A DNA stretch of 64,000 nt. Origin: a virus. Where the stretch lies: positions 32,001 to 96,000 of IMG/VR virus record IMGVR_UViG_3300042503_001836. One strand, 5' to 3'. Made by a program: the position numbers and the translations under genes. This document shows, in pieces, positions 5,769 to 43,300 of this stretch; the stretch's first letter is position 1; the number at the start of each line of letters is the position of its first letter. Under the pieces are notes generated by a model that saw only the letters and a list, made by a program, of their open reading frames with translations, was not told where the DNA came from and ran no database searches.

Positions 5769-8700
5769 ATGCCAGTAGTTAAATTTTCTCTGAATCAGTA
5801 TCGTGCTTACTTTGACTTAGTTAAGCCTCAATATATTAGCTGGGATTTCTATAAAAAATATATAGACAGAAAACCGCCATTTGGCGAGTTAGGTGCAATT
5901 ATATATTTGAGAACTTACAGCCGATTTATTAATGAACTAAAACGCCGTGAACTATGGCAAGAAACCGTATTAAGAAACATTGAGTACAGCCTAAGCTTAG
6001 ACACTGTAACCCCATTAGAGGACAAATTTACAGAAGCTAAAGCGTTATTTGATATGATGTTTAACTTGCAGGGTTTTCCTGCGGGTAGAAGTCTATGGAC
6101 AGCAGGATCACCACAAACTGAAAAAGATTCATCCAGTAATTGGAACTGTACATTTAAGACTGTAGACAGTTTAAGCGCGTTTAGTGAGATTTTTTATTGG
6201 TTGTTAATTGGTGCTGGTACTGGTTTTAGTGTTGAGCAAAAATATATTTCTCAACTACCAGAATTTAATGCAAAAGTCCATGTGATTCATGAAGACTACA
6301 ACTATCAAAAGAGACTTGATGGTACTTTTGTTAATATCACAGATTCAGAAAGTAGTCCGCAGTTCCTAACAACTTACACCGATTTTGTAGAGACTTCAGA
6401 AATAATTAGACCTGACAATGAGTTTGTTAGACATCTAGATGATAACCACAAGATAGTTAGATTACAAATTGGCGATAGTAAAGAAGATTGGTGTAATGCT
6501 TTGAGAATATTTTTAAAAGCATTGACTAATAAAAATGTAGAGAAAATCTACATTAATTATGATCCTATACGTCCGCAGGGAACGCCTATCAAAACTTTTG
6601 GCGGACGTGCTAGTGGGCATAGAACATTATTAGAAATGTTTGATAATATTTCATATGTTCTTCAAAGATGTTCAGGTGTTTTAGCCTCTATTGACTGCTT
6701 AGATATCATAAATGCTTTAGGTTATAACGTAATGGCAGGTGGTGTACGTCGCTGCTTACCTAAAGGTACATTAGTTCATCTTCAAAATGGACTAGTACCA
6801 ATTGAAAAAGTCAAAGTGGGTGACATAGTAGCAACATCAAAAGGCTATCATCAGGTGACTGACTTTGTTTATCAAGGTATTCAACCAATATCCCAAATTA
6901 CAACGCAAGCGGGCATTTTTGAATGTACAGATAAACACAAAATAGCGATCATTTCTGACACTCAAGGTAACTATATCTGGAAGCAAGCTAAGGATATACA
7001 AATTGGTGACAGAATGGTATTTGTTAAAAATACTATTCCAGGTACAGAAACTAAACTTCCAGAATTTGACTACATTTATCCTGAACATAGTACAACCTGC
7101 AAAGCAATAACCATACCGGATATGAGTGATGATATCGCCTATTTGCTAGGTTTCTTACACGGAAATGGTTATGTTAGACTAACATCTTCAGAAGGAAATA
7201 TCAGCTTTGCAATAGCTCCTGATTTACCACAAATAGTAGAAAAAATTGACAGTATTATTAAGCAGTTCGGTGTTCATACAAAATTACGTGAACCCCAAGA
7301 AAATGATAACTGCTATAAGCTAGTAATTAAGTCAAAACAATTAGCTACTTTTTTAAGTCAGTTTAAGTTATCTAATCAAACTTTAGTTATTCCCGATCTA
7401 ATTCTTCAGGGTCTTGATTCTTATAGAGCAGCATACACGGCAGGCGTATTTGATGCCGACGGTTCAGTTAAAAACAGACCTATTACTGTTGCCACAAGTG
7501 TTTATCCTGAATTTTTGAAACAGTTGCAAGTAGTTTTATCAAGTTTAGGCATCTTAACTACTTTAAATAAAAAAAGAGATGCTAAAGGCAATTGGAAAGC
7601 ACTTCACATACTTAATCTGAAAGGGGAAATGTTTATTGATAGATTTGAAAGACAAGTAGCATCATTTTCACTTAAGTTTAGAGACAATAGAAAATCTGCA
7701 AGATCACAAAATGATTTTGGTTTTCCGTCCAGGATGGTCACTTCTGATAAAGTTAAGTTTGGCAGTCAATGGGATGCTAAATGTAAACAGATGACTGTAG
7801 CTAGACTTGAGAAAATCACAGGCATTGAGGTTTATAGAGTCCCTGTAGAAGTGTTAAGTATCAATCACGCGGTAAGAAATGATTACACTTACGATATCAG
7901 TGTGGATTCAGTAAATGAGTTTATTGCTGATACTGGTTATTTAGTACATAACACTGCTGAACTGGCTCTAGGCGATAGTTCAGATGAATCCTTTAAGACC
8001 GCAAAAGTAGGACTGTTTAGTGATCCAGCTAAAGCAAGAGTTAAGGATCTAAGAACAATGTCTAATAACTCTACAGGCGAATATGATCATCCTGGAGTAG
8101 ATGCAATTAATAAGACATTTGAATGTTTAGAAACTCAAGGTGACCCAGGTTTTTGGATTATTGGAAATAGTCAGAAATTAGCAACATCACCCGTTAAAGG
8201 CACGAATCCATGTGCTGAAGCGGCTTTAGACGACAAACAATCATGCAACTTAACGACTAAGAACGTTAGGGCTTGCATATACTTTGATAAAAAGTCTGGC
8301 AAGTGGGAGTATAACTGGGAACTAGGGAAAAAAGTCATTGAACTAATTACCCGACTAGGAACTCGGATCACACTAGCTAAACAATGGCATCCAGAATGGG
8401 ACAGAACACAGAAGAGAGATCGTTTGCTTGGAGTTTCTATGACAGGCGTAATGGATGCCTTTGATCTACTTGGTTGGGATTATGAGCAGCAAAAGTATTT
8501 CTTCCAATGGTGTAAGCAAACAGCGATAAAAGCCTCAGACGATTACCACGACTATTTAGGAATTAACAGAAGTGCTAGAGTCTGTTTAATGAAACCAGAA
8601 GGAACAATCAGCCTACTACCAACCGTTTCTAGTGGTATCCATCGCGCTTATGCTCCTTACTATTTACGTCGCGTTAGATTTAGTAAATCAGATCCTTTAG

Positions 8701-15258: not shown

Positions 15259-16362
15259 ATGAAAGTAATATGCTCCGTTGTTGATCTGCGTGATCAACTA
15301 GAAAAACTGGTATTAGCTTGTAATACTAAGTATTCCCCTACTCTTAGCTATGTTTTAGTAGAATCAAAAGATTCTATTATAAGAATGACCACTACTGACT
15401 TAAGCATTAGCTTATCAATAACTGTAGTAGGTCAAGTAGTAAAGTCTGGTAACGGTTTACTACCATGTAAGCAGTTATTAAGCTTACTTAAAGTTTTAGC
15501 TGCTGATGAAGTAGTTTTGACTATAAATGATGAAATCTGTTTAGTACAAACTAATACAGGTAATTACCGATTACCAAGCGAACCGTTTACAAATTTTCCC
15601 AACTTACCCACAATACAAGATGGGGACACTTATCAGCTAGAAGCAAAGAAACTTACTGAAGGTATAAAAGCAGTTTTATTTAGTGCTAGTACAGATGAAA
15701 CTAAAGGTGTTTTATGTGGAGTGCATCTGACCATGCTACAAGGACATAATTTAGAATTTGCAACTACTAATGCTCATATACTTTCATTAATAGAATTAAC
15801 TAGTGAATATACAAACTCTGATACAGAGTTTACTATTCCTAACCAAGCTTGTTTGTTGCTGCAAAAACTCCTAGAAAAAGTTGATGATGTCAAGATCACT
15901 GTTAAAGATTCGGACATTGCCTTTGAGTTTGATAATTACAAACTTACTAGCCGATTGTTAGAGGGACAATACCCAAGATATTATCATTTGTTCCCTCGAC
16001 AGTTTGATAAAAAACTAACTGTTGATCGGGTAGCTTTACTTGATGCTGTTGAGAAAATTCAAGTAATATCATCATTAAAAAATAATGGTGTTATTTTTAA
16101 TCTAAGTCTAGAAAATCAAGAAATAAATCTAACATCTCAAGTAACAGAGGTGGGTATCACAAAGATATCCTTACCAGCACAAATATCCGGTGATAGTTTG
16201 AAAACTGCGTTTTATTGTCCATACTTAGTTAGCGTATTAAAAAATCTTTCATCTACTGAAGTGCAGATTAAGCTTAATGCTAAATTAACCCCTGTAGTGT
16301 TTTCCCCATTAAGCACTCAGAAAATCAAATATTTAGTAATGCCCTTTGAAATCAGAAAATAA
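15259..16362 (+). CDS. dnaN: DNA polymerase III beta sliding clamp
   Basis: 367 aa; TTDL, FPNLP, FSASTDETKGVLCGVH, SRLLEGQYPRY, YLVMP C-terminus. Confidence 0.9.
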   Translation: MKVICSVVDLRDQLEKLVLACNTKYSPTLSYVLVESKDSIIRMTTTDLSISLSITVVGQVVKSGNGLLPCKQLLSLLKVLAADEVVLTINDEICLVQTNTGNYRLPSEPFTNFPNLPTIQDGDTYQLEAKKLTEGIKAVLFSASTDETKGVLCGVHLTMLQGHNLEFATTNAHILSLIELTSEYTNSDTEFTIPNQACLLLQKLLEKVDDVKITVKDSDIAFEFDNYKLTSRLLEGQYPRYYHLFPRQFDKKLTVDRVALLDAVEKIQVISSLKNNGVIFNLSLENQEINLTSQVTEVGITKISLPAQISGDSLKTAFYCPYLVSVLKNLSSTEVQIKLNAKLTPVVFSPLSTQKIKYLVMPFEIRK

Positions 16363-16365
16363 AAA

Positions 16366-17772
16366 ATGAAAATCATAACAACAATTAAAGAAATAACTGA
16401 AGCTTTACCTGGACTATTAGCTGTAATTCCTAAGCGTCCTACCCATGCAGTGTTAGCTAATATTTACTGCCAAACCATAAAAGAAAACGGTAAAGAAGGT
16501 ATTAGATTAAGGGCAACTAATTTACAGTCATACCTCACAGTTTTTATTGCCTGTAATGTAGTGGAATCTGGCGAGTGCTGTATACCTGCTAAATTGTTTT
16601 CTGATATCATCACCAAAACTAAATCTAGCGGTGTATTAGAGTTAATCCTATCTGGTAATGGTGAAGAATTAACAATAGGAACTAACAATCTGAAACAAGC
16701 TATTAAAGCTTATGACAGTCCTGAGTTCATAGAGTTTCCAAAACCTGAAAAAACAGATAAACAAGTGACTGTTGATGGTATTCAGTTTTTCAATAAAGCT
16801 AAAACCTTGTGTGAACACATCAGCAAAAATAGTTACACAGAAAACCTTAATAATGTACATTTAGCTTATGGTAAACTCGCAGCCTGTGATGGTCATAAAT
16901 TAGCCTATGCAGATTTGAAAGTAAGCAAAGATGCACCTAGTATTTTTATACCGCCAGATTTAATTCCAGTTTTAAATAAATTGAATCTGGTCAAAAAATT
17001 AAAGGGCTTAGAGAACACTGATATTACTTTTAGTGTACAGGAATATGAATTAACAAACGGTGATCTACTGTTCTTTAACTTTGATAATTGGGAACTAATA
17101 CAAGGCACTCGCAGTTATAAACCACTACCTGACACAAATTTAGAAGATGGTACTGTTTACACTGATGTAGAGTTTGATAGGAAGCACTTATTATCAAGAA
17201 TAAAAGCGGCAATCATTTGTAATGAAAAGAAGATTACAAGGTTATGGTTGCATTTACAAGCAGGTAATCTTCACTTTATTACAGATAATAGTTCCGACTA
17301 TTTAGAAGCTTATACTTCTGGTGTGATTGCTTCCTGTTTGATAGAGGCTGAAAAGCTTGTACAGATAGTGGATAGTTTAAAAACTAAAACAATTAAAATC
17401 AAACTACCCCATTCTTGGGGATTGTTAGGCGTGGAAGTAGATGATTTTAACATTGGTTTATTATTAATGAAATCTAAGGATTATGATCAAATAACTTTAG
17501 ATGAGTTTGTAGAAACTATAGGTGTAGAAAGTCCAGTAGAGATTACTTGGAAAGAATTACCACAGTTATCTACAGAAGTTAATCATGAAACTGAGGAAGC
17601 ATTACCAGAAATAAAATCAACGGCTGTTGCTGTGTTAGAACCCGTTACCACAGAACCAACTATTGATAGCCAAGTGAAGGATGCTACTACACATCTACAA
17701 AACCTTTTGGCTACTGTCACAGATGTACAACTTAAAGAAGCAATAGTTAAAGAAGTTTTAGCTTTAGTTTAG
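16366..17772 (+). CDS. second, divergent beta-clamp-like protein with C-terminal extension
   Basis: IPKRPTHAVLANI, LRATNL, IPAKLFSDII, EFIEFP, LAACDGHKLA match DnaN N-terminal domains. Confidence 0.7.
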   Translation: MKIITTIKEITEALPGLLAVIPKRPTHAVLANIYCQTIKENGKEGIRLRATNLQSYLTVFIACNVVESGECCIPAKLFSDIITKTKSSGVLELILSGNGEELTIGTNNLKQAIKAYDSPEFIEFPKPEKTDKQVTVDGIQFFNKAKTLCEHISKNSYTENLNNVHLAYGKLAACDGHKLAYADLKVSKDAPSIFIPPDLIPVLNKLNLVKKLKGLENTDITFSVQEYELTNGDLLFFNFDNWELIQGTRSYKPLPDTNLEDGTVYTDVEFDRKHLLSRIKAAIICNEKKITRLWLHLQAGNLHFITDNSSDYLEAYTSGVIASCLIEAEKLVQIVDSLKTKTIKIKLPHSWGLLGVEVDDFNIGLLLMKSKDYDQITLDEFVETIGVESPVEITWKELPQLSTEVNHETEEALPEIKSTAVAVLEPVTTEPTIDSQVKDATTHLQNLLATVTDVQLKEAIVKEVLALV

Positions 17773-21696: not shown

Positions 21697-23301
21697 TTAC
21701 CTGGTTAAGCTTTCAAAATCAGAATCAAAGCAATCTTTTGATTGCAGTTCATTTGCACACCATTTAGCGATCACTGGCTTACAGTCGTTCATTGCGGACA
21801 AGTCATTATGAAAGGCTCGATAGTCTTTATGAGAGCCTTTTAACTGGCATCTTTCAAAAAGTTTAAGCATGAGTAGTCTATTCTTGTACGGAATATGATA
21901 CTTGTCTGCTAAGACTTTGAGCATTTTTTCTACATCTAAGATGGCATCAAACACTTGGGGATAATAGAAATGATGTCTTTCTAAATAAGGCAAGCCCCGG
22001 TACTGTTCATGTATATACAACTCTTGATCTGGTGGTAAGTATCTAGTTGGCATAAAGGGTAGACTGTTTGCAGGTGCTACGTCTACAATCATTTTTGCCC
22101 AGCTTGAAAAAGCGCATATAGAACAGTACAATTGTTTTTCACTAGAATAGAATTGCCGCAAAAGTCCTACAAAAGTACGCATCTGATGACGTAATTTGTA
22201 ACTAGCATCAAATCTTGGGTAATCTCTCTCTAGCAGTTTTCCCTTCTCTACATCAGATTGTGCTAACCGTTCTAAAAGGTAAGCTTCCTCAAGATTATTT
22301 TGGGATCTGTAAGTATTTATCTCAAACAAGTCTAGTCGTTCTGGATAGTCTGCTTTAAACCTGTCAACCATTGCATTAATCAATGGTTCATCTTTAACCA
22401 GCCGATTTTCCTTAGCAGTAGCACAGACTATTTTGCTAATGTCCTTACGTCTGCCAAATTTAGAAACGCCTTGCTTATCAGTAGAAACTAAGGTTTCTTC
22501 ATACAGCATATTAAAATCCAGACTGAAAAGTTTATCCCACTGCCAAGTTTTCAGATCACAACCACGTCCAGGTACACCCCTGGTAGTAGTCAATGCTGCG
22601 GGTAAAGTAGTATTTACAATCTCGATCCGGTCTTTTGATAGTTGGTCAAGTGAGGATACGCCACAATCCCTTCTAATTTTATAAATCGTCCAGAATATCT
22701 CTTTCAGATTATTGATGTGCTTGAAGGCGTTTTTCTGTACCTGTGGAGGCAAAACTGCTAAATCCTGGTAGTAGCTTTTGCCGTCCCTAAACTCTAGGAG
22801 ATGTTGCCAGATATCGGAAATGTGATCTCGGAAGTATTCTAGATTAGCTACTTTATGATCCGTCCTCCTTAACATTTCCGCAGTGATGTCTAGACGGTCG
22901 TGTAAGGAGTCCAAATCAGTCTGCCCTCCTAAATGTACCTGAAACCCGGTAACGTGCTGTATATAGGCACGTAGTCCAATATGCCCAATAGAGACTAGAG
23001 ATTTTATTGCTTCGGAGTTCCTTTCTATTTCTGCATAGTAGGCAATTATCCCAAAAGCATAATTGCTGTCAAAAAGATTCTGATGCCCAAAGACATCTAG
23101 CAGATATTGAGATTCTGTCTTTTTGTAAAAACATTGAAGCGGTTCATAGTTAGATAATGTTTGTCTTACGTTATTGACTAATCTACCTACTGTAGTTTGA
23201 TGCACTCCAGATAGTTTAGCGATCGCTTCCTGATTTAACCCAGTTTGACCACCATCCAAGGCAATGAAATACTGGTCATCCTTAAAAAATTGGTACGGCA
23301 T
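21697..23301 (-). CDS. 534-aa protein with N-terminal HTH (antirepressor-like) and possible C-terminal HNH-like domain
   Basis: LNQEAIAKLSGVHQTTVGRLV HTH; CSIC...LERHH...RCQLKGSH...FH. Confidence 0.55.
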   Translation of the reverse strand: MPYQFFKDDQYFIALDGGQTGLNQEAIAKLSGVHQTTVGRLVNNVRQTLSNYEPLQCFYKKTESQYLLDVFGHQNLFDSNYAFGIIAYYAEIERNSEAIKSLVSIGHIGLRAYIQHVTGFQVHLGGQTDLDSLHDRLDITAEMLRRTDHKVANLEYFRDHISDIWQHLLEFRDGKSYYQDLAVLPPQVQKNAFKHINNLKEIFWTIYKIRRDCGVSSLDQLSKDRIEIVNTTLPAALTTTRGVPGRGCDLKTWQWDKLFSLDFNMLYEETLVSTDKQGVSKFGRRKDISKIVCATAKENRLVKDEPLINAMVDRFKADYPERLDLFEINTYRSQNNLEEAYLLERLAQSDVEKGKLLERDYPRFDASYKLRHQMRTFVGLLRQFYSSEKQLYCSICAFSSWAKMIVDVAPANSLPFMPTRYLPPDQELYIHEQYRGLPYLERHHFYYPQVFDAILDVEKMLKVLADKYHIPYKNRLLMLKLFERCQLKGSHKDYRAFHNDLSAMNDCKPVIAKWCANELQSKDCFDSDFESLTR

Positions 23302-23306
23302 ATGTT

Positions 23307-23531
23307 CTATGGTTGTGTTTGCTGTTCTAACGCTTGTTTCATAACCTGAAATACTTTCTTGATTCTGGAATAGCTTGCTGTTTCATAGCCAGAATCAATC
23401 CAAATGCGGACTCGTTTATAGCTAAAGCCTGTCTCACTTGCTAATTGTCTTTTAGACCATCCCAACTGCAAGCGCATCAATTCCAGTGTTTCATGCAACT
23501 TGTTAATGTCAACCTGTCTTAAGTCTAACAT
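23307..23531 (-). CDS. XRE/Cro-like HTH regulator
   Basis: MRLQLGWSKRQLASETGFSYKRVRIWI. Confidence 0.75.
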   Translation of the reverse strand: MLDLRQVDINKLHETLELMRLQLGWSKRQLASETGFSYKRVRIWIDSGYETASYSRIKKVFQVMKQALEQQTQP

Positions 23532-23918: not shown

Positions 23919-24199
23919 TTAGCTTTTTTTGCTATTTTTCTCAGTAAATTATAAGTAATCCGTATTAAAAATAACTTTAGTAAAAAACATATTAAAAACT
24001 ATATTTTAACTCCTAGAATACTTATATAAAGCCCACTCTGTTATTACAAGTCGGCGCGGAAATTCCAATTAGCTAACTATAAACACTTAATTAGGTAATT
24101 TATAAAACAGTAAGCAGTTAGTATAGTAATTATGTACTAAAGTAAAAATTGACAGCACAAATGTTTGAGCATTTTTAGTTAAAAAAACTTTTTAATGCC

Positions 24200-25115
24200 C
24201 GGTTTTCTATTTAATTTTTTAAGCCGTAATAAACCCTATGGATAACTGACATCCTATCCACTAGATGTCAAGGGCTATAGCTGGCTGTTAACCTACAGCC
24301 AGAGTTACTTTAGTTTCTTCAAATTAATCAGGTTGCGAGCCGTCATTCTTTTTAGTCCCCTCAGATAAATCTGTTTTACCCACAGATGGGAGTCAAATTA
24401 CCTTTTAACCAATAGGCTTGTCTGTTTTTGTTTAGGATTCGCGGTCTTCAACATACTTCATCCAAGACGCTAAGTGTCGTTTAGCTGCGTCCTATTTACT
24501 TGATCAGCTAGGTTACTGATATGTGGGTGTTTTTACATCTTGCTCTGATGGTTTTTGCGCTTATACAGTCGCACTTTCGATACCCAATAGAATTTGCTAA
24601 CATCTACACCGCCGCACCTGGAGTCATTTATTTCTAAAAGTAGTTCCCATTGTCGTTTCAATCCAACTCCCTATTAAGAGAGTATTTATACATTCCCCTT
24701 GTCTAGTTAATACCTAATGTTCATGGAAATCGCGCTCAAATATGGATCTAGTTTTTTGGTTCAATCCCTTCAGTAAAGTCTCACTACCTTACTAAATTTT
24801 TGATATCCCCTCAAGTCCGCCCAATTATATTGTCCCCATTTCAGGGTATCGTCATGGCCAACGCAATCTGCACTACTTTTTTATTGATTCACTTTTAATC
24901 CTTACAGGATTTAGGTCTCAACTAGAATCCGCCACGCGCACGCATACGGACTAGAAGCAATTTCCAATTAAAAACTAAATGAGAGTCTTTAATTTTCAAG
25001 CCGGGTAATGACTTCACCGACTCATCTTGCGTTCCTTACTGGTCTAGGGCTTTTATAATAAACGCTGAGGTGTGTTACAACGCTCGATTGTTTCGCCTAT
25101 CAGATTTATTCGATT
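24200..25115 (-). ncRNA. large structured non-coding RNA, GOLLD-like
   Basis: ORF-free, own consensus promoter, many hairpins; ordered motifs (GUCAUUACCCG, UUACUGAAGGGAUUGA..AAAAAACUA, CAGGUGC, GUAAAACAGAUUUAUC) resemble GOLLD as recalled; 3' end approximate. Confidence 0.65.
24655..24691 (-). CRISPR. solitary 37-nt CRISPR-like repeat inside the large RNA
   Basis: GTATAAATACTCTCTTAATAGGGAGTTGGATTGAAAC: 7-bp hairpin plus ATTGAAAC end. Confidence 0.7.
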
Positions 25116-25163: not shown

Positions 25164-25194
25164 AAAAAAACCTAGTAATTTTGTACTAGGTTTG
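25164..25194 (-). terminator. intrinsic terminator after the solitary repeat unit
   Basis: AAACCTAGTA-CAAAAT-TACTAGGTTT followed by a T run. Confidence 0.75.
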
Positions 25195-25267
25195 AGTTCT
25201 TATTACTTAGAATTAATTAAAACTAGGGGCTTTTCTGTTGCGGTTTCTGATATCTTAGCTGGTTTAT

Positions 25268-25304
25268 GTTTCAATCCAACTCCCTATCAAGGGAGTATTT
25301 ATAC
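25268..25304 (-). CRISPR. solitary 37-nt CRISPR-like repeat followed by a spacer-like segment
   Basis: GTATAAATACTCCCTTGATAGGGAGTTGGATTGAAAC; 35/37 identical to the 24655 copy. Confidence 0.7.
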
Positions 25305-25353
25305 CATAAGCTTGTGTTTTATGGTTTCTAAATTCATTTTAACACAAATGTGC

Positions 25354-25623
25354 TTACTTGACTTCAAATACATAACCAGATTCAGTTACTTTGACTAATC
25401 TCAATACAGTATCAGTCCCGTCTTTTTTCAGGCTACCTTTCCACGCTAGGCAACCAAAAGATGTTTTATCTCGAATGTCTTCCGCTTCCTCTAAAAGCTG
25501 TTTGCATCTAGTATTATACTTTTTCCAAACATCCTCTATTTTGCAGGATGTAAACTTAGCTACAATTTTGTTATTAGCAGCTAAGATATGGTATTCTGTT
25601 TTTTCTGTATTTCTTAAAGTCAT
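25354..25623 (-). CDS. hypothetical protein, co-transcribed with the solitary repeat
   Basis: 89 aa, AAGGAG RBS, promoter at 25736-25764. Confidence 0.65.
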   Translation of the reverse strand: MTLRNTEKTEYHILAANNKIVAKFTSCKIEDVWKKYNTRCKQLLEEAEDIRDKTSFGCLAWKGSLKKDGTDTVLRLVKVTESGYVFEVK

Positions 25624-25735
25624 CTTATTCTCCTTATTTTTTTTTAACTTGACACAACTCGGGATAATGCCTAATTTTAAGAGTCACCTATTTAAGGCGA
25701 TGTTTGGTTTACCTTTGTTTTTTAACCACACTAAT

Positions 25736-25764
25736 AATATAACAGCATTTAAAATTAATGTCAA
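25736..25764 (-). promoter_or_regulatory. sigma70-type phage promoter
   Basis: TTGACA-17 bp-TATATT. Confidence 0.75.
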
Positions 25765-26631: not shown

Positions 26632-27089
26632 CTAAGGTATGTGTGCTGAATATAAAGAAACATGATCCACGATATATCCATTAGCAGCACTAGCAATTCC
26701 AAAAGAATGAGTGTGAGTATCTTGCGCTCCTAGTCCGTAGATACTCGCATTAACTGCTGTGCCATTAGCAATGGTAGTCCTAATCGGTGTAAGAAACATA
26801 GGCACTCTAAAAGGAAAATAGAGGAATAGATTTCCTACTTCCGGAGACTGTAATCCATTAGTTATCAACTGAGCGTATCTCTGACACTTAGCTAATTCAA
26901 CAGCGTAATCATCAGAAGTAAAAGCAGTAGCACTACTGCCTTCTTCTAGTTTTGGGCGTGAGATTACCCATGTTCCTGAAGTTTGCGCTCCTACCCTTAG
27001 TCTTACTTCCAATCCATTTGATACCTCAGCAGGTAATGTTACTGTAGCTGTATATCTTGTAAGTGTGGAGTTAACAGTCCATGTAACAT
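26632..27089 (-). pseudogene. 5'-truncated tail-fibre cassette (third paralogue)
   Basis: 104 bp identical to 27906-28009, then a distinct tip ending AHIP; the ATG after the RBS is out of frame with the fibre frame. Confidence 0.7.
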
Positions 27090-27108: not shown

Positions 27109-27537
27109 CTAAATTTTAACTAAATTACTAAAATGCAATTCTTGAACTGCATTATTCCAAAGCGTTTTTTCTTGTTCACTTAACACATACCCATCATTAA
27201 TTAACTCATCAAGACTATCTTTTAATGCTTGTTCTGTTCTAATATTTGACAGGACAGTAATTAAATTAACGTAATCAACAGATAAAATATTGTCTGTTTT
27301 AGCCTCTTGTTTCAAACGTAAATAAAGCGGCTTTAATTCACCTGCTAAAACACTACTATAAAGACCATCCCAATCCGGTAGCATAGGTAGAATAATAACA
27401 TCAGCAGGCTCAGGGGTGTTGCCTTTAGCTAACCACGCTTCATATAATTGCCAGTCACCGTTCTGACCTTGGGGAATTGTTGCACCATCAAATAAACGAA
27501 TTATTTGATTTGGGTTGGAAGTTAGTTTGTAAGTCAT
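27109..27537 (-). CDS. tail-fibre assembly chaperone-like protein (copy 2)
   Basis: [23 protein letters not shown]-terminus; paralogue of 28881-29306. Confidence 0.7.
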
Positions 27538-27541
27538 AAGT

Positions 27542-28861
27542 CTAGGGGATATGCGCTAAAAATGTAGTAAGGTTTAGGGATGCAGCAGCACCGCCAGACG
27601 CAGCACTTCCTATTTGAGTACGCAAAGAGTTTTTTGTAGTAGTAATACCAACAATTACGTAGGAATTAAAGAAATTGCTCCAAGTACTAGAAGTGATAGG
27701 GGCAGAAAACATTTCAACAGGAAAAGTAATAATAGGTGAATGTCCTCTAGCACCAAGTTCGCCATACCAAACAAAATCCTGAGTAATATTTAAAGCGTAG
27801 AAATGCCTTAAGCATCGCAGCAATTCCGTAGAATAGTTACCGCAATTAAAGTCAGTAGCACTACTGCCTTCTTCTAGTTTAGGTCTAGCAATTACCCATG
27901 TACCGGAAGTTTGCGCTCCTACCCTTAGTCTTACTTCCAATCCATTTGATACCTCAGCAGGTAATGTTACTGTAGCTGTATATCTTGTAAGTGTGGAGTT
28001 AACAGTCCACGTACCTGAAGCTATAAGTGTCTGCGTAGGTGTGGCAATCGTTCCATGAGTATCTGATGTGGTGGTTGGTCTAAATAGTTCCCACGTCACA
28101 GTAGATAATTGTGAGTTACTCAGTTCTACACTTAGTGTTACAGTTTTCCCACTAAGTTTGGCTGTGTCTCTACTTTCTAATCTTTGTAATAAATAAACCG
28201 CAGTAGTTAAAGTTGCTCCTCTAATTGTGAGAGATTGATTAGACCTATCAAATACATAGCTAGGATTACCACCAGATGCAGCTAAACACCATTCTGACTC
28301 GCCAGGGTAGCCTAAAGAAGCTGTGGGAAGATTAAGAGAATTAGGTATAGTCCCAGATGCCGCACCTTGGATCACAGCCAAAGCAGGATTTTTTAAATAA
28401 TTAAGACTATTTAATTTAAAAGAAAGATTTAACTTAGCAAAATTTACCGCACCATCTGCTATTTTATCAGTCGTAATTGATCCATCAGCTATAGTATCCG
28501 TAATAATTTCTGTTTTCTGTTCTATAAACGTTGCTGTTATTTGCCATAAATAAGTACCTTGTTGAATTACACTCCACTTATCACAAACATACTCCTTATA
28601 ATTATAAGGAGTATATTGTGTGTCTAATGGTCGCCATCTAAATTTTGTAATTCCACCATAGCTAGTGAACAGGTCAATTATTTCATCTTTATCCGCCGTG
28701 CTTAAATTAGGGATTATTAACTCTGTAGTAGTTCTAGCAGAGTTAGGCGATATAACCATTAAACCATAGCCATCACCTAATTTAGTATTTTGAATTTGAG
28801 CTTTTACCTCTTGACTAAATTCCCATTTAGTTGGTGGTAATATTAATATGGGTGATGGCAT
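27542..28861 (-). CDS. gpM-like minor tail domain fused to a fibre/carbohydrate-binding-like module
   Basis: N-terminal KLGDGY...[10 protein letters not shown]...YVCDKW...ITATFIE; C-terminal [17 protein letters not shown] module. Confidence 0.75.
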
Positions 28862-28880
28862 GGTTTAGAAACTACCTCAA

Positions 28881-29306
28881 CTAAACTTTAACTAAATTAC
28901 TAAAATGCAACTCTGTAACAGCATTATTCCAAAGCGTTTTTTCTTGTTCACTTAAATCATACCCATCATTAATTAATTCATCAAGACTATCTTTTAATGC
29001 TTGTTCTGTTCTAATATTTGACAGGACAGTAATTAAATTAATGTAGTCAACAGACAAGATAATATCTGCTTTTGCTGCTTGTTTCAAACGCAAATAAAGC
29101 GGCTTTAAATCACCAGCTAAAACACGATTATAAAGACCATCCCAATCAGGAAAAATAGACGCGACAATAACATCAGCAGGTTGTGGAGTGTTACCCTTAG
29201 CTACCCACGCTTCGTATAATTGCCAGTCGCCGTTGTTGCCTTCAGGGATTGCGGCACCGTCAAATAATCGGATTATTTGACTAGGAAATTGACTTAATTT
29301 GTACAT
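28881..29306 (-). CDS. tail-fibre assembly chaperone-like protein (copy 1)
   Basis: Highly similar to 27109-27537; follows a fibre gene. Confidence 0.7.
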   Translation of the reverse strand: MYKLSQFPSQIIRLFDGAAIPEGNNGDWQLYEAWVAKGNTPQPADVIVASIFPDWDGLYNRVLAGDLKPLYLRLKQAAKADIILSVDYINLITVLSNIRTEQALKDSLDELINDGYDLSEQEKTLWNNAVTELHFSNLVKV

Positions 29307-29331
29307 ATTTTTGTATTAAAGAAATTGTGAT

Positions 29332-30324
29332 TTAAGGAATATGTGCTGCAAAAGACCCTAATGACAAATTTGCTCCAGCACCACCAGAGTTTACGTTTCC
29401 TATTTGAGTAAAATATCCTTGTTTAGTCGTGTAATCAACCATCACGTAGGCATTCTCCCCACCAATCCAATAAGTATTCAATCTTATCGGTGCTTGAAAC
29501 ATTTCTACTGGAAAATTAATAATAGGGCTGTGACCTCTTGCTCCTAGTTCTCCATACCAGACAAAAGATTGAACAAGATTGTTCAGCGTATAAAAATATC
29601 TTTGGCATTTTTGCAATTCAACGGCGTAATCATCACAAACAAAAGCAGTAGCAGTAGATCCCTCCTCTAGTTTAGGTCTGGCAATTACCCATGTACCGGA
29701 AGTTTGCGCTCCTACCCTTAGTCTTACTTCCAATCCGTTAGATACCTCAGCAGGTAAGGTTACAGTAGCACTATATCTTGTAAGTGTTGAGTTTACTGTC
29801 CATGTTCCACTTGCCACAACTGTCTGAGTAGGGGATGCTATTGTACCATGCGCATCTACTGTAGTGGATGGTCTAAAAAATTCCCACGTCACAGTTGATA
29901 ATTGTGAATTTGATAGTTCTACACTCAAAGTCACTTGCTTTGAGCGCAATCTAATTGCATCAATGGATTCTATTCTTTGTAATACATGAATAGCCGTAGT
30001 TGATGCTGCACCTCCTAGAGTTAAAGTTTGATTAGCCGTGCTAAAAGCGTAGGTAGGTGTACCACCAGATGCAGCAATACACCACTCTGTTTCACTAGGG
30101 TATCCTAAAGATGCCGTAGGTAAAGTAAGAGAGTTAGTGAGTGTACCTGATGATCCAGCACCTTGGATCACAGCAAAAGCAGGATTTTTAAAATAATTTG
30201 GATTATTTAATTGAATAGCGACACTCAGTTTAGCTGGTGTCACTGCACCGTCTGCTATCTTAGCCGTCGTAATTGATCCATCTGGAACTGTACCACTACC
30301 AGAATTATTAATGATGATTCCCAT
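29332..30324 (-). CDS. tail fibre / receptor-binding protein
   Basis: DGSITTAKIADGAVT repeat; PKLEEGSTATAF..ELQKCQRYF module; ends AHIP. Confidence 0.75.
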   Translation of the reverse strand: MGIIINNSGSGTVPDGSITTAKIADGAVTPAKLSVAIQLNNPNYFKNPAFAVIQGAGSSGTLTNSLTLPTASLGYPSETEWCIAASGGTPTYAFSTANQTLTLGGAASTTAIHVLQRIESIDAIRLRSKQVTLSVELSNSQLSTVTWEFFRPSTTVDAHGTIASPTQTVVASGTWTVNSTLTRYSATVTLPAEVSNGLEVRLRVGAQTSGTWVIARPKLEEGSTATAFVCDDYAVELQKCQRYFYTLNNLVQSFVWYGELGARGHSPIINFPVEMFQAPIRLNTYWIGGENAYVMVDYTTKQGYFTQIGNVNSGGAGANLSLGSFAAHIP

Positions 30325-37321: not shown

Positions 37322-40300
37322 TTATCTGTTGTAAGGATTACCACGATTAATAGAACCGCCTACTCTCATTTCCCGACGAATACCATCTGATACCATCGCT
37401 TGTACAGCCTGTGACAGTCTGTAGGTATCTACTTCAGAATCACTGCCAACCTCAACACTTACAGGAACATTTATAGTTGTCGTATTGCCAATCTTAGATG
37501 CCATACTACCGTTACCACCTGCACCTACAACACCACCATTAGCAAACCCAGCCACACCGCTTTGCAACTTATTCCAAATAGCGGTTTCTTTGTGGTTAAG
37601 AACCCGTTCACCTTCAGAAGCAACTATTAAATGAGGCTTACGTCCAGTAATAGATCGCTCCTTATTCATTACCCCAACTATCCCGCCATCAGCAAACATT
37701 GGTAAAGTAGCAAAACCAAAATCTGTAGGAATAGCATCAAATAATCCAGGCGTAGGATTAAATCCCATAGAATTGGCATTAAACACAGAACCAGAGAGAA
37801 TATCAAAAGTGCCACCAAGAAGACTGCTAAAAATATCACCACCCGCGTCCATTGCTGTGTTTGCCACAGTTTGACTACTTAATGTTAAAGCAGCTTGCAT
37901 CAACATTTGCCCAGCTTGGTTTAATGTCATACCTGCCAGGTTGAGTCCATTAGCACCAACACTCAAATCAGCTAAACCTTTAACAGCATTTATACCATCA
38001 GTTGGTTTTTCATCTTTCTTTTTATTTCCAAACAATCCCTCAGTCCAACCAAATAGAGCATCAGTCATGCGTTTAGATGCCATATCAGCTAGAGGATCAA
38101 GGAAACCTTTCATAATAGAGTTAAATAGATCACTTACGGACTCGCCAAACCCTTTTGTACTTAATAGGAACTCCTTAAACCCGCCCCTAAAGCTACTTGT
38201 GACACCTTTAACCACAGTTCCTAACTCAGAGAATTGTAGTTTAATAGCGTCTAGTTTTGCTTCATTAGTCAGCTTGAGATTTTCCCGTAAAGTATTAATC
38301 TGTTCATTAGTTAACTTATTAGCTTCCGTAGCTTCAGCGTTCTTTCTAATAAAATCATCTAACTGAAGCGTAGCCTTAGCAAAATCCATCTGTTGATTAT
38401 TAATAGCCAATTGCTTATCAATCTTTTCAGCACGGAAATCAAGACCATAGGCTTTGAGTAGAGAACTTCTAGACTCTTGTACACCTTTAAATGAATCCTG
38501 GATAAATTGCACTCTTTCTAATAATCTAGAAGGAATATTTGCATTTTCAGCAATACGATCATTTTTTTGTTTTAACTCAATATTTTGTTTATTGCGTTCA
38601 AATTCTTCCTTAACGTAGTCCCTTCTTTTCTTAGCTTCTTCAGAAGAAATAGACCGACTATTTTCTTCATTTGTAATAGCATTAAGTTTTTCTTTATATT
38701 CATTCTCGGTATTTAATAAAGCTAGGTTTGCTTCTAAATCAGCAGTTCTAGCAGACCTTGGATCAAGTGGGTTTAATTGCTGTAATAGTTTACGCTGTTC
38801 AACTTGTTTTTGGAGTAAACTAATTCGGAGTTTTTCAGTTTGTAATGTAACTCCTGTTCGTCTAGATATTTCCTCTCTATTAAATTGTTCTACTCTTGCT
38901 TCAAGTATTTTAGGAGTATTTTGATTTAATTCAGCTAATGCTTTTTTAGCTTGTATATTCTGAAGTACAGTAGTTTTAAAGACCTCGTTATTTGTATTAA
39001 TTGCGTTAAGTGCCTGTTCAGGACTGTCTGGAAATTTCTCTAAAGATGCAACAAAAGCAGCTTTTAGTAATTTTTCATTGTCAATTACACCTTGAGTATC
39101 ACGAACTGTTTTTTCTAACGCTTCTCTCTTTTTCTCTAATGAACGAATAAGCTCTTGATAGCCAATCAAGAATCGTTCAACATTACTCATGTTGGGAGAC
39201 AAGCCCTCTCTTATAGTTTTCCAAATATCTAAATCAGTATCTTTCATACTGCTTTGAATTTGAAACATAGATTCAGTAGTTTGTCTAAGTAAACGATATA
39301 ACCCTAACAATTGCTGTGTTCTGTCTGTTAATAGCTGGGACTCAGTATTCATAGAGTTGGCTGCATTTTGTCCATCGGCTGTATTGAATTTAAGATTTGT
39401 TGCATCTGTAACATTTGATTGCATTTCGTCAGGAGTAAGAGTCCCGCCAGTATTAACTAGTTGATTCAACCTATTAAGATTTTCTTGATAAGTCTTTAAG
39501 AAATTACCATGTTGTCCTTGGGGTGTTCCTTGTCCTTTATATGCACTTCTATTCTTACCCGACTGGATACTGGCATAATGTAGTGCAAGTTTATTTAATA
39601 CAGATGTATCTACTTGACCTTTCAAAACTTGATCTAAAACACCTCTAGATTTTAAGGAATGAATAAAATACAAATCTTGCATACCCGGGCTAAAGCTTGG
39701 TTGATCCTGACCTTGATAGTCTGTCAACTTAAACATATCCGGCATGGCATTTTTACCAAACTGTTTTTTAGCCGCTTGGATAGATGCGTTAAAGTTCATC
39801 ATCTGATAGCGTCCGGCTGCAGTGCTACTGTTGTTAATCCACTTAATCCAAGTTGGTTTCCTACCAGTTCCCACATAGGGATGTTTAGAGAAATCAGTAA
39901 CATTCTCACCACCAATCGTTAGACCATAGCCAAAGTTCCTAGTATTTTTTCTAAAATCAGAACCCTCAGCATTAGCCACAGCATTAGCCAAAGCTAAAAT
40001 ATACTTATTCTTACGCAGTTCATAAAGTTGTTTACCAAGTGGGGTTAGTTTTGCATACTCTTCAGGGCTTAAGTCATTACCACCTTGAGATATTCCTGAA
40101 GAATTTTTAATACCTATCGTACCAGGTACAGGCGGTAATATGGGAACGGGTTGTCTTTTTGGCAACGGCTTAACCTGTGATGCGACATTCTTAGCTATTT
40201 CTACCGCACCAACAGCTTGATCAAAGACAAAACTCTTAATACCCGTACTCTTTAATGCTTGCTTAAATTTATTAAATTCTGCTTCGTTAGCAAATACAAT

Positions 40301-43300
40301 ACAACCACTAGAGCCAGGATCAACAAGTCTGTCCTTATCAATGTGGAAACCAATAGCGGTTCGTTCTGTTTTAAAATCAGGTTCAAGTCTTATAAACTCA
40401 TTCCCCATTTTAGCCTTATTGCCGCTAGGAGTAGTTTTACCAAGTCTATAACTACCAAACTCTACAGGTTGTTTAGACCCTGCTTTTGTTTCACCTGCAC
40501 CACCAAATATTTGAGTATCCGCCTTACCTGAATTAACAATAAATCTATCAACTATCTTTCCTTGTTTAATGACGGCTAACTGGATTTTTTCTAATCCAAA
40601 TTCATCTTTTTGTCCCAATCGCTGCATCCTGATTACAGATTCACCCTTGGACTGACTGGCAGGAGTAACAGTATTAGCTTTAGTTTTAGCAGTTGCCGGA
40701 GGTTGGGAAGCGATCGCACCATAATCACCCTTAGCTAAATTAGCAAGGAACACTTGAGGGTTAATATAGCGTCCGTTTGCCTTAACCCCAAAATCTAGAT
40801 GATGTCCTAATACATTACCCAGTTTTTGCCCAGCTTGTACTTGTACAGGTTTGCTCAAGTCACCAAGAGTATTTTTGATACTATTAAGTGCTAAGTGTCC
40901 ATACTCTATAGTTATCTTTGTACCCGATGGTAATATACTATTAACAAACACAGCAGCATCTTGTCCGCCCCATTTTTGCAATTTAGCTACACCTGCAAGA
41001 CTAGCAATAACTTCTGCACCAGCACCACCCTTAACACGACTGTCAAAATCAACCTTATTGTGTAAACGTCCTGGACGTTGACCCATGACACTTTGTCCAA
41101 AGGTGGGTTTATAGTTAATCAAATCTTGGATAGTCGTATTTTTAATAGGTGATGTAAATTGATTTGCTACTGTAGGTATAACCGTTGGTGCTGGTGTTGC
41201 TGATGCTGCATCCTGTGTTGTAGGTGGCGTTATAGCTGACGATACAGCCGATGTTATACCACCAAACACACGACCTACAGTGTTTAGTAAATTACCTGCC
41301 CAGTCAGAAGAGTTATTTTCATTAGTGACTTGATTTAACTTACCTAAAGTTACATCTAACTTAGTTCCTACGCCCGTCACAGTATCACCAAGTCCCTTAA
41401 AGGCATCGTTAAGACCACTAGTAGCTATTACTGCGTCTTGTCCTAAAGACTTCACAACCTCTTGCACATCAGAGTTTATACCAACAACACTACCCTGAAC
41501 TGTTCTAAGTTGATCGTCAAACTCTTTAATTTTATCCTCATCAAAAGGAACTATCTTACCTGGTAGACTTCGTTGTAATTCACTAGCACGAAGCTTAATG
41601 TCATCAATATTATTTTGATAATCAATTTCCTGTTTTTTAGCATCTAACTGACGTTTTTCCATCTCCGTAGTTTGAGAGATAATATTAATAAGCCCCTCAA
41701 TAAATTGAGTGTAAATGTTATCGCCAGCACCTATCAAAGCTTCTCTAAGCTTGTTTTGCATCCTAGATCCTTCTAGGGTTTTTTGTGCTTTTTGGAACTC
41801 TATGCTTACCGCTTGCGCTTCCCTAACAGAAGCTCTATAGTATTCAGCTACTTGTTTAGTCTGGTCAATCAAAGCCTGTTTCATATCACGCTGGGCTTTG
41901 GCCATTTCTTGTGAGTTTTGAGCTAATGCCTCTCTATCTTTAGTAATATCGCCTCTTAACTTATCAAATTCCGCTTGTGCTTCATTTAAGTTAGTACCAC
42001 CAGCCGCAATAACTTGGCTTATCTTGTCTAAGGCAGCTTGATCACTATTAATCTTTTCAGTTAATAAAGTGCGTTGGCTGCTTAAATCAGCTAGTTGAAT
42101 ATTTGATAATTCCGGTGCTATTTGTTGCGCTGTTCCCGATGATGCGTAAATTTTAGCCTGACTTAAATTAGACTTAATCCTATTAGCAGATGTAGCACGC
42201 TCAAATCTAGTATTTGCATCCTTAACAGCATTGGTAGCTTGGGTATATAAAGCCTCTTCCATAGGTCGGACATCAAACGGTTTTGCCCCAGCAATCATGT
42301 TTTTAAGCTGGTCAATTCGTGCTTGAGTCTTTTGGACAGCAGCAGGAATTAAATTTCCTGTAACACCTTCAACCGCGCCTAGCTGTAACTTTTGCTTATA
42401 TTCTTCTTCCTGTTTAAGCATCCGTTCCAACATAGGCAACGGTGATCCAAAGCTATTAACTAGATCCTCACGTTTTTTGTAAAGTTGTTGAATTAATTGC
42501 TTAACCTCACCTTGTTCCTTACGAACCTTATCACTCGGTAACGCCTTGTTTAGTTCTACACTTCGTTTAGTTGCTGCCTCTAGTTGTTTGTCAATATTTT
42601 TAATCTCTTTAAAATCAAACGCACGTTGTATAGAGGTTTTGATAATGATCTCCTGATTTTTCCTTTGATTTTCTAATGCTTGTAATTCCTCTTTAGCTTT
42701 TTCATATTCTTCTTTAATTTTTTTATCCCGTCTATTAAAGAAAGTAGGTACAGTCAACTTTTCAAATTCAGCTTTCTTTTGCGGAATTTTTTTATCAAGA
42801 TCCTCCATAATTTTTCTATTTTCTAGACGATCACCTACTTCAAACTCAGAGGATTTGATAGCCAAAGTATTCCGCATCTGTTTAGACTGATTTTCTAAGT
42901 TTTTAAAATCAGCACTGTTTTGTATATCTTTAATTTCTTGAGGACTAGCACCTCTAGCTTTTGCATCGGCTAATACAGCTAATCTTCTATTGTTGTTATC
43001 CTCAATTTGTCTGTTAAGATTTGATATATCTTTGTTAGCATTAAATTTTTGTTGCTGTTCTATTGTCAGTGGTTTGATATCAGCTACAAAGTCACTAGGT
43101 TTACCAGTAAATCCTTGACTAGACGCAAACTCTTTTAAGTTTTGGATATTTTTTTCTTGATCCTCAAAATATTTGATAACCTGTTGTTGCGCGTTAGTTA
43201 ATCGGGCGTTTGGATCTTCTGTATCAAAATAGCTTTTTATTCCTTTGTTTTCTGGTTTGTTAAGAAACTCTTTTTGTTTGTCTGTTAGTTTAGGTGCAAA

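Follow-up and report, generated by a model that had tools for sequence, protein, structure and literature searches.

A solitary type I-C CRISPR repeat within the remnant of a broken gene in a phage with its own type I-C system

What is a single CRISPR repeat doing outside any array, between a small gene and a terminator, in a viral genome? In the present study, this question is raised by the locus at 25164-25764 of a 64,000-nt stretch of viral DNA (hereafter the window), which corresponds to bases 32001-96000 of the 118,553-bp IMG/VR record IMGVR_UViG_3300042503_001836 (C1; completeness rated 93%) and carries lambda-like tail genes (J, L, M and tail fibres) together with clamp and methylase genes. 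An earlier reading made from the letters of the window (the sequence-only reading) had described at this locus a promoter, an open reading frame (ORF) of 89 aa, one repeat, a unique segment (25267-25226 as quoted) and a terminator, all of which are present. It had further proposed that the ORF encodes an anti-CRISPR protein (Acr) and that the repeat with its segment is an RNA anti-CRISPR (Racr) or a mini-array aimed at a competing phage or a host cas promoter. The best explanation obtained herein, on which our own confidence is evenly balanced, is a different one, namely that the type I-C repeat of this phage has recently been copied to an ectopic site, probably as a by-product of recombination and not as a dedicated weapon.

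A repeat in place of gene sequence

Several findings define the element; all features of the locus are given for the minus strand of the window. First, the solitary 37-nt repeat at 25304-25268 is identical at 37 of 37 positions to 21 of the 22 repeats of array B in the same record, and 100 shuffles gave no match. The repeat belongs to type I-C both by this identity, as cas3, cas5c, cas8c and cas7 lie between array B and a second array, array A, and by its form, a 7-bp hairpin in the predicted fold followed by an 11-nt 3' part. The assignment of this 3' part to a type I-C handle in the sequence-only reading fits, because the same record encodes Cas7/Csd2, Cas5c, Cas8c and Cas3; the repeat is genuine, and its cleavage would yield an RNA with a repeat-derived 5' handle, as that reading had stated. 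When 14 repeat copies were aligned, 84% of the hairpin cells were paired compared with 38-66% in slid controls, four of the seven pairs were changed on both sides in a compensatory manner, and the 3' 12 nt, which are common to a Nostocales I-C array, were nearly invariant.

Second, the system to which this repeat belongs is encoded by the phage itself. The type I-C locus sits outside the window at C1:14365-23888, approximately 33 kb from the solitary repeat. Array A (C1:14365-16574, minus strand, 31 repeats) and array B (C1:22337-23888, plus strand, 22 repeats), each preceded by its own promoter-bearing leader, flank the cas genes: cas7 (C1:16803-17663, minus; Pfam/NCBIfam Cas7/Csd2, 281 bits), cas8c (C1:17682-19337, minus; Cas8c at 174 bits, below the 219-bit cut-off of that model), cas5c (C1:19322-19963, minus; Cas5c, 131 bits) and cas3 (C1:20019-22097, plus; HD and helicase domains). 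No Cas1, Cas2 or Cas4 was detected in the record by six-frame profile searches, with approximately 7% of the genome possibly missing. Phage CRISPR systems free of adaptation genes, I-C variants among them, are already described in the excerpted text of PMC7162821. A previously reported phage, CL131, was considered as a carrier of the same system and rejected, as the locus reported for CL131 is of type V-U2, with 36-nt repeats.

The phage Cas7 shares 63-70% identity with its counterparts in Dolichospermum, Aphanizomenon, Anabaena, Sphaerospermopsis and Calothrix, and the repeat of an Anabaena I-C array is likewise 37 nt long, with the same 3' 12 nt as the phage repeat and another hairpin. Judging from these similarities, the host is probably a member of the Nostocales (filamentous cyanobacteria). 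The host repeat that the element might mimic was not found: the core of the phage repeat and a degenerate pattern spanning its variants gave no match in 185,579 species genomes. The solitary repeat sequence was found in one further IMG/VR contig only, and a variant repeat from the related metagenome contigs described below was found in no IMG/VR contig.

Third, the segment that follows the repeat is part of a gene. Homologues of the 89-aa ORF (ORF1) led to a viral contig (G001; loci L019 and L058) and to five metagenome contigs (L053-L057), and the gene order common to these contigs is tail gene L, promoter P1, ORF1, terminator, promoter P2 and repeat. In L056, an intact gene, ORF2b, lies between ORF1 and the terminator at the same place and between the same flanks as the segment in the window; its length is 48 codons if translation starts at the nearer ATG and 58 codons if it starts at an in-frame upstream ATG. 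When the window is aligned with L056, the flanks agree base-for-base up to the nearer ATG, and the match resumes from ATAAACCAGC. The first 11 codons of ORF2b (25337-25305; MNLETIKHKLM) precede the repeat in the window, the 37-nt repeat occupies the position of 82 nt of coding sequence in L056, and the ORF2b frame reads ATG GTA TAA into the repeat. The stretch after the repeat (25267-25203), which the sequence-only reading took for a spacer, holds the last 21 codons and the stop. This segment is identical to L056 3621-3661 at 39 of 41 nt, with the first 22 nt perfect; over its full 65 nt, five nucleotides differ from L056, three of them synonymously (GAA for GAG, CTA for TTG). The translation of the remnant, DKPAKISETATEKPLVLINSK, agrees exactly with the C-terminus of the ORF2b family, which comprises nine homologous clusters in public data with 79-100% identity. 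Among the contigs that encode homologues of ORF1 and ORF2b are some of 63.8, 113 and 172 kb. With the flanks matching on both sides in the L056 alignment, the unique segment therefore corresponds to the final 21 codons of ORF2b. In other words, it is the remnant of a broken gene and not an acquired spacer.

An origin of the repeat in situ was rejected, as the intact ORF2b contains nothing repeat-like (alignment score of 7 compared with a shuffle mean of 7.4). The junction of repeat and remnant was found in no other IMG/VR contig and in no species genome. Downstream sequence after ORF1 is available in six contigs, the window included: another gene, of 130-138 aa, follows ORF1 in four of them (L019, L053, L054 and L057), ORF2b follows it in one (L056), and the repeat follows it in the window only. 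In addition, ORF2b seemingly ends prematurely in the relative P0015. As far as these contigs indicate, the replacement took place in one lineage, within a variable accessory locus.

The remaining parts of the transcription unit are shared with the relatives. The P1 promoter (25764-25736) consists of TTGACA and TATATT separated by 17 nt, with an upstream TG (extended -10) and 11 of 12 matches. The promoter scan by itself did not exceed chance (14 sites compared with 12.8 +/- 3.2 in shuffles); the stretch 25888-25700, which includes P1, is 90-94% identical in five related contigs, and P1 is one member of a near-identical promoter family that recurs in the same genome. The intrinsic terminator (25193-25168), a 10-bp stem followed by a T run, is conserved in relatives. 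The 194-nt 3' untranslated region (UTR) is predicted to fold (z = -4.0) in such a way that the repeat hairpin and the terminator are both formed. No tRNA or Rfam family was detected in the window, and no Rfam family in the remainder of the record, where the two matches to microRNA models (E ~0.002-0.004) reflect a plain long hairpin.

ORF1 (25623-25354) is separated from the repeat by 49 nt. It has six homologous clusters with 81-92% identity, and its differences from relatives are concentrated at codon position 3 (24 of 39 in the comparison with L057); by its homologues and this pattern of substitution, ORF1 is a real conserved gene. It stands without a repeat behind it in five of six related contigs. 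ORF1 is unmatched in Pfam, PHROGs and PADLOC and, at E up to 10, among the sequences of the PDB, and no relatives of it were found in the species genomes; in the Protein Atlas, scores were at chance level only. The AlphaFold model (predicted local distance difference test score of 74) comprises two strands, a helix and four strands, and a Foldseek search of the PDB with this model gave a best E of 0.2 and template modelling scores of 0.28 or below. Likeness to known Acr proteins was absent in Pfam, PHROGs, PADLOC and PDB, with no search made against a dedicated Acr library. The idea that ORF1 is an Acr, raised in the sequence-only reading, is therefore derived from the position of the gene and is unlikely.

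Repeats outside the arrays

The repeat behind ORF1 is followed by a second unit. Promoter P2 (25150-25122) is very similar to P1 and conserved in relatives, and its leader (25121-25091) is shared with G001/L019, where it abuts the repeat directly. In the window, a unique non-coding insertion of 399 nt (25090-24692) stands between the leader and a second solitary repeat (24691-24655), which differs from the array B repeat at 2 of 37 nt and has an array A-like loop; taken over 38 nt (24692-24655), it shows three mismatches, and it lies 613 nt downstream of the first repeat. A further segment, S (24636-24590), which directly follows the P2 repeat in relatives, is displaced by 18 nt. Thus, the P2 unit of the window is disturbed at two points, by 399 nt between leader and repeat and by 18 nt between repeat and S. 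The 399-nt stretch is placed exactly at the junction of leader and repeat and is absent in G001; neither an Rfam match nor an ORF of at least 20 aa nor another copy was found for it, and its fold is weak (z = -2.1).

P2 and its repeat are present in all five contigs that reach this point. A 29-nt leader abuts the P2 repeat in G001, and the promoter itself abuts a repeat variant whose stem is changed on both sides (CTCTC...GAGAG) in L053, L056 and L057. By these alignments, the conserved element of the locus is the P2 promoter-plus-repeat unit. Behind the P2 repeat of L057 come segment S with a length of 50 nt, a degenerate second repeat, a consensus promoter directly after it and approximately 1.2 kb without ORFs. 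An ORF-free stretch of 0.5-1.2 kb follows the P2 unit in both the window (24180-24655, minus strand) and L057 (4880-6110), and the two sequences are unrelated.

Such repeats are not confined to this locus. At least eight copies lie outside the arrays, at C1:195, 276, 7160, 25422, 26834 and 26880 and at the two sites in the window, and two further sites in the record contain the handle only. The six copies outside the window occupy C1:195-312, 7160-7196, 25386-25422 and 26798-26880 (loci L009 and L010), and a covariance model run over the window and the final 24 kb of the record detected no further copies. The copy at C1:7160 stands in the 5' UTR of a replication operon that holds a clamp-loader gene, the pair at C1:26834 and 26880 stands between two ORFs, and one ectopic copy starts at a strong promoter. 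Seven of the 21 strong promoter-like sites feed repeat-bearing transcripts. For one promoter-driven repeat pair, it was also observed that the apparent spacer recurs approximately 80 nt downstream (35 nt with one mismatch). IMG/VR searches found no relatives covering the other ectopic repeats. Because even the degenerate copies keep the hairpin and the invariant 3' 12 nt, selection on the ectopic repeats in general is indicated, and the comparison of copies within this genome suggests that they are generally maintained in this phage.

Several features elsewhere in the window were recorded as well. A 534-aa protein (21697-23301, minus strand) matches at its N-terminus a PADLOC helix-turn-helix (HTH) model that is often fused to Cas6 (E 2e-9) and also weakly matches BstA, and a 74-aa HTH protein is encoded just upstream of it (23307-23531). 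The structural gene region includes a single ORF of 5,050 codons (37322-52474, minus strand). Two adjacent genes for DNA polymerase III beta clamp-like proteins of 367 aa and 468 aa are located at 15259-17772 (plus strand). The tail-fibre region (27109-30324, minus strand) is duplicated, with pairs of 142 and 439 aa and of 141 and 330 aa that share near-identical stretches.

Targets and competing explanations

The targets of the arrays themselves were examined along with those of the segment behind the repeat. A spacer of array A (C1:15631-15665) has a perfect 35-nt match in two of 401 Nostocales genomes (loci L059 and L060), within a response-regulator gene (REC and GerE domains), which suggests that the phage targets a host or host-resident gene. 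The spacers of both arrays gave no match at E 0.01 or better among GenBank phages and no match in the related contigs examined, and those of array B had no match in the 401 Nostocales genomes. In array B, one 41-nt spacer is present twice consecutively (C1:23533-23651). The array B spacer at C1:23462 and the array A spacer at C1:15306 overlap by 26 nt on opposite strands, and both arrays are therefore aimed at one target region. The flanks of four protospacers could be used to derive the protospacer-adjacent motif (PAM), two of them indirectly: ATC and ATT flank the array A protospacer in the two genomes, and GTT and GTC were deduced from the two overlapping spacers. In all four triplets, position -2 is T and position -1 is C or T.

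For the segment behind the solitary repeat, these searches were negative with one exception. The segment has no match longer than 12 nt in the phage's own genome, and IMG/VR contains no exact match to its first 24 nt. The segments after both window repeats gave chance matches only among GenBank phages (E 0.8-4). Five Nostocales genomes with I-C relatives gave no match at three or fewer mismatches; the 401 Nostocales genomes gave chance-level matches of 20-35 nt, none in the guides at E < 1e-3 among the matches listed; and the two genomes with the array A protospacer gave matches at E 0.27 or worse only. TTC is the canonical I-C PAM. In scans for TTC-flanked seeds, the best site in the phage genome, its own promoters included, matched 10 of 14 counted positions compared with 9-12 in shuffles, and the best site in seven host I-C loci matched 11 of 14 compared with 9-12 in shuffled guides. 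A host cas promoter, one of the targets suggested in the sequence-only reading, thus has no partial match above the shuffled level in the host I-C cas loci. The other suggestion, a competing phage, holds insofar as the sole real match is in a related phage; that match is the homologous ORF2b allele itself, and its PAM position reads GCG, which has neither T at -2 nor C or T at -1. An acquired foreign spacer with a compatible PAM was therefore not found, and although the basis in four flanks is thin, the mismatch of GCG argues against interference with sibling phages.

Herein, we regard the element as an ectopic repeat copy that was most likely left behind by recombination, and the following course of events can be proposed for its RNA. 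A transcript from P1 would carry ORF1, with the repeat in its 3' part, and would end at the conserved terminator. Type I-C pre-CRISPR RNA is processed by Cas5d/Cas5c according to excerpts of PMC11903412 and PMC10651486, and because the Cas5c, Cas7, Cas8c and Cas3 that are cognate to precisely this repeat are encoded by the phage, its Cas5c would be expected to cleave the transcript where the repeat hairpin has its base. The cut would leave an ORF1 mRNA with the repeat hairpin at its end and release an RNA of approximately 110 nt made up of the 11-nt 5' handle, the ORF2b remnant and the terminator. The released piece might then load into the phage Cascade as an orphan RNA resembling a CRISPR RNA (crRNA). 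A by-product is preferred over a dedicated function because the guide is self-derived, the element is present in one lineage only and no PAM-compatible target was found.

Several observations weigh against this explanation. First, a perfect repeat without decay, together with an intact strong promoter and terminator, would also be expected of a selected element. Second, the hairpin and the invariant 3' 12 nt retained by the degenerate ectopic copies argue for selection. Third, the guide does match the intact ORF2b allele in sibling phages, its seed perfectly, and the PAM inference that speaks against its use draws on only four protospacer flanks, two of them indirect. Fourth, no mechanism can be offered for the clean replacement by 37 nt, and no repeat-like sequence pre-existed in ORF2b.

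Among the alternatives, the repeat may be a Cas5c-dependent processing site that ends or stabilizes the ORF1 mRNA or couples its level to Cas5c, as one node of a genome-wide set. The ectopic copies outside the window speak for this, particularly those in the 5' UTR of the replication operon and between two ORFs, as do the share of strong promoter-like sites that feed repeat-bearing transcripts and the hairpin kept by compensatory changes beside its nearly invariant 3' end. However, ORF1 manages without a repeat in five of the six related contigs, full-text literature searches gave no precedent, and no relatives were found in which conservation of the other ectopic sites could be followed. We therefore consider a processing role unlikely for the copy behind ORF1.

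The match to L056 raises another possibility, that of a crRNA directed against the intact ORF2b of co-infecting relatives, with repair copying the insertion into the cut allele in the manner of homing. The carrier's own copy would be protected, because the repeat occupies the PAM position. Such a role would fit the near-identity of the guide to the sibling allele, the complete interference module of the phage, the frequent loss or replacement of ORF2b in relatives, and the phage-borne arrays and mini-arrays against related viruses known from the excerpted text of PMC7162821. The GCG of the intact allele, set against ATC, ATT, GTT and GTC, does not fit, and an insertion that drives itself would be expected to be commoner than one contig in six and nowhere else. 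We judge this explanation improbable. A broader proposal, to which we would give equally little credence, is that the phage, though free of adaptation genes, employs its I-C machinery for more than the two arrays: the scattered cognate repeats, placed behind early-type promoters, in a 5' UTR, between genes and here within a gene, would form a network of Cas5c sites and Cascade-loaded RNAs that shapes transcripts, and at this locus, as a natural knock-in of a repeat, the guide would act on the sibling allele, excluding relatives or homing into them.

A Racr-type decoy of host I-C Cas proteins, with ORF1 as an Acr, takes up the Acr/Racr proposal of the sequence-only reading. A small ORF and a solitary I-C repeat on one transcript do resemble the validated bicistronic AcrIC5-RacrIC1 operon (excerpts of PMC10651486), which makes the proposal a reasonable lead, and the 3' handle is shared by I-C systems of Nostocales hosts. 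Nevertheless, an I-C module with arrays of 31 and 22 repeats is present in this record, and a decoy would poison the phage's own Cascade, because its repeat is identical to that of the phage's own arrays. The repeat was found in 0 of the 185,579 species genomes, with only the 3' handle shared with the one host I-C array examined, from which the hairpin differs; gene breakage in a single lineage gave rise to it; and ORF1 resembles no known protein family or structure. The decoy is thus very unlikely. Least probable of all, to the point that we would hardly expect it, is a regulatory crRNA-like RNA of the CreA, CreR or Cracr type, with which Cascade would repress a promoter through partial PAM-proximal pairing: the RNA would come from a non-array locus and such RNAs are known in I-C systems and viruses (excerpts of 10.1101/2024.10.29.618823), but seed matches next to TTC, in the seven host loci as in the phage itself, are at best within the shuffled range, and the guide is a gene remnant.

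Comparison with known systems

Full-text literature searches, which did not extend to the supplementary tables published with the Racr and Cracr papers, where the record may be listed, gave no description of this phage and none of a solitary repeat whose cognate I-C system is encoded by a phage. To date, a solitary repeat in a phage is taken either for a decoy that acts on the CRISPR system of the host (Racr) or for a means of hijacking the host's Cas proteins. The locus resembles a Racr, such as RacrIC1 beside AcrIC5 (Camara-Wilpert et al. 2023, PMC10651486, in excerpts), in that a strong promoter is predicted to drive a single transcript of a small ORF and a viral solitary repeat with an I-C hairpin and handle. 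In the excerpted text of the same paper, however, Racrs have no associated cas genes and mimic the host repeat, whereas cognate cas genes and arrays are present in this phage and no host genome with the repeat was found; also, the copy described here arose inside a gene.

With the minimal unit of repeat plus guide and the match of the guide to a close relative, the element is reminiscent of the virus-borne mini-CRISPR arrays that related viruses reportedly use against one another (Medvedeva et al. 2019). Unlike these, it has one repeat only, its guide is a remnant of its own gene at the homologous place, and the PAM of the relative is unfit. With CreA, CreR and Cracr (10.1101/2024.10.29.618823, in excerpts), the element shares a non-array, repeat-derived RNA that would load into Cascade, and the P2 unit of the relative L057 has the same form of repeat, spacer and degenerate repeat; unlike in those systems, no PAM-proximal complementarity to a cas or other promoter exceeds chance. 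In practical terms, the locus calls for caution: a unique segment behind a repeat is not necessarily a spacer, and in the present study it was the relatives that revealed the broken gene.

The genome as a whole resembles the phages of Al-Shayeb et al. 2020 (PMC7162821, in excerpts, where ICP1 is also cited) in having an interference module and arrays without cas1, cas2 and cas4 and in a spacer that matches a bacterial chromosomal gene. The excerpted text of that paper contains no description of repeats scattered outside the arrays, whereas the present record is a 118-kb siphovirus-like Nostocales genome with a canonical I-C module, Cas3 included, and at least eight repeats outside its arrays. 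The main open lead is this genome-wide scatter of repeats. Beside decoys and hijackers, it represents a third situation, in which a phage that owns the cognate Cas proteins has copies of its own repeat scattered through its genome; if the ectopic repeats are indeed processed and loaded, Cas5c and Cascade might be used for the RNA biology of the phage or for competition among siblings.

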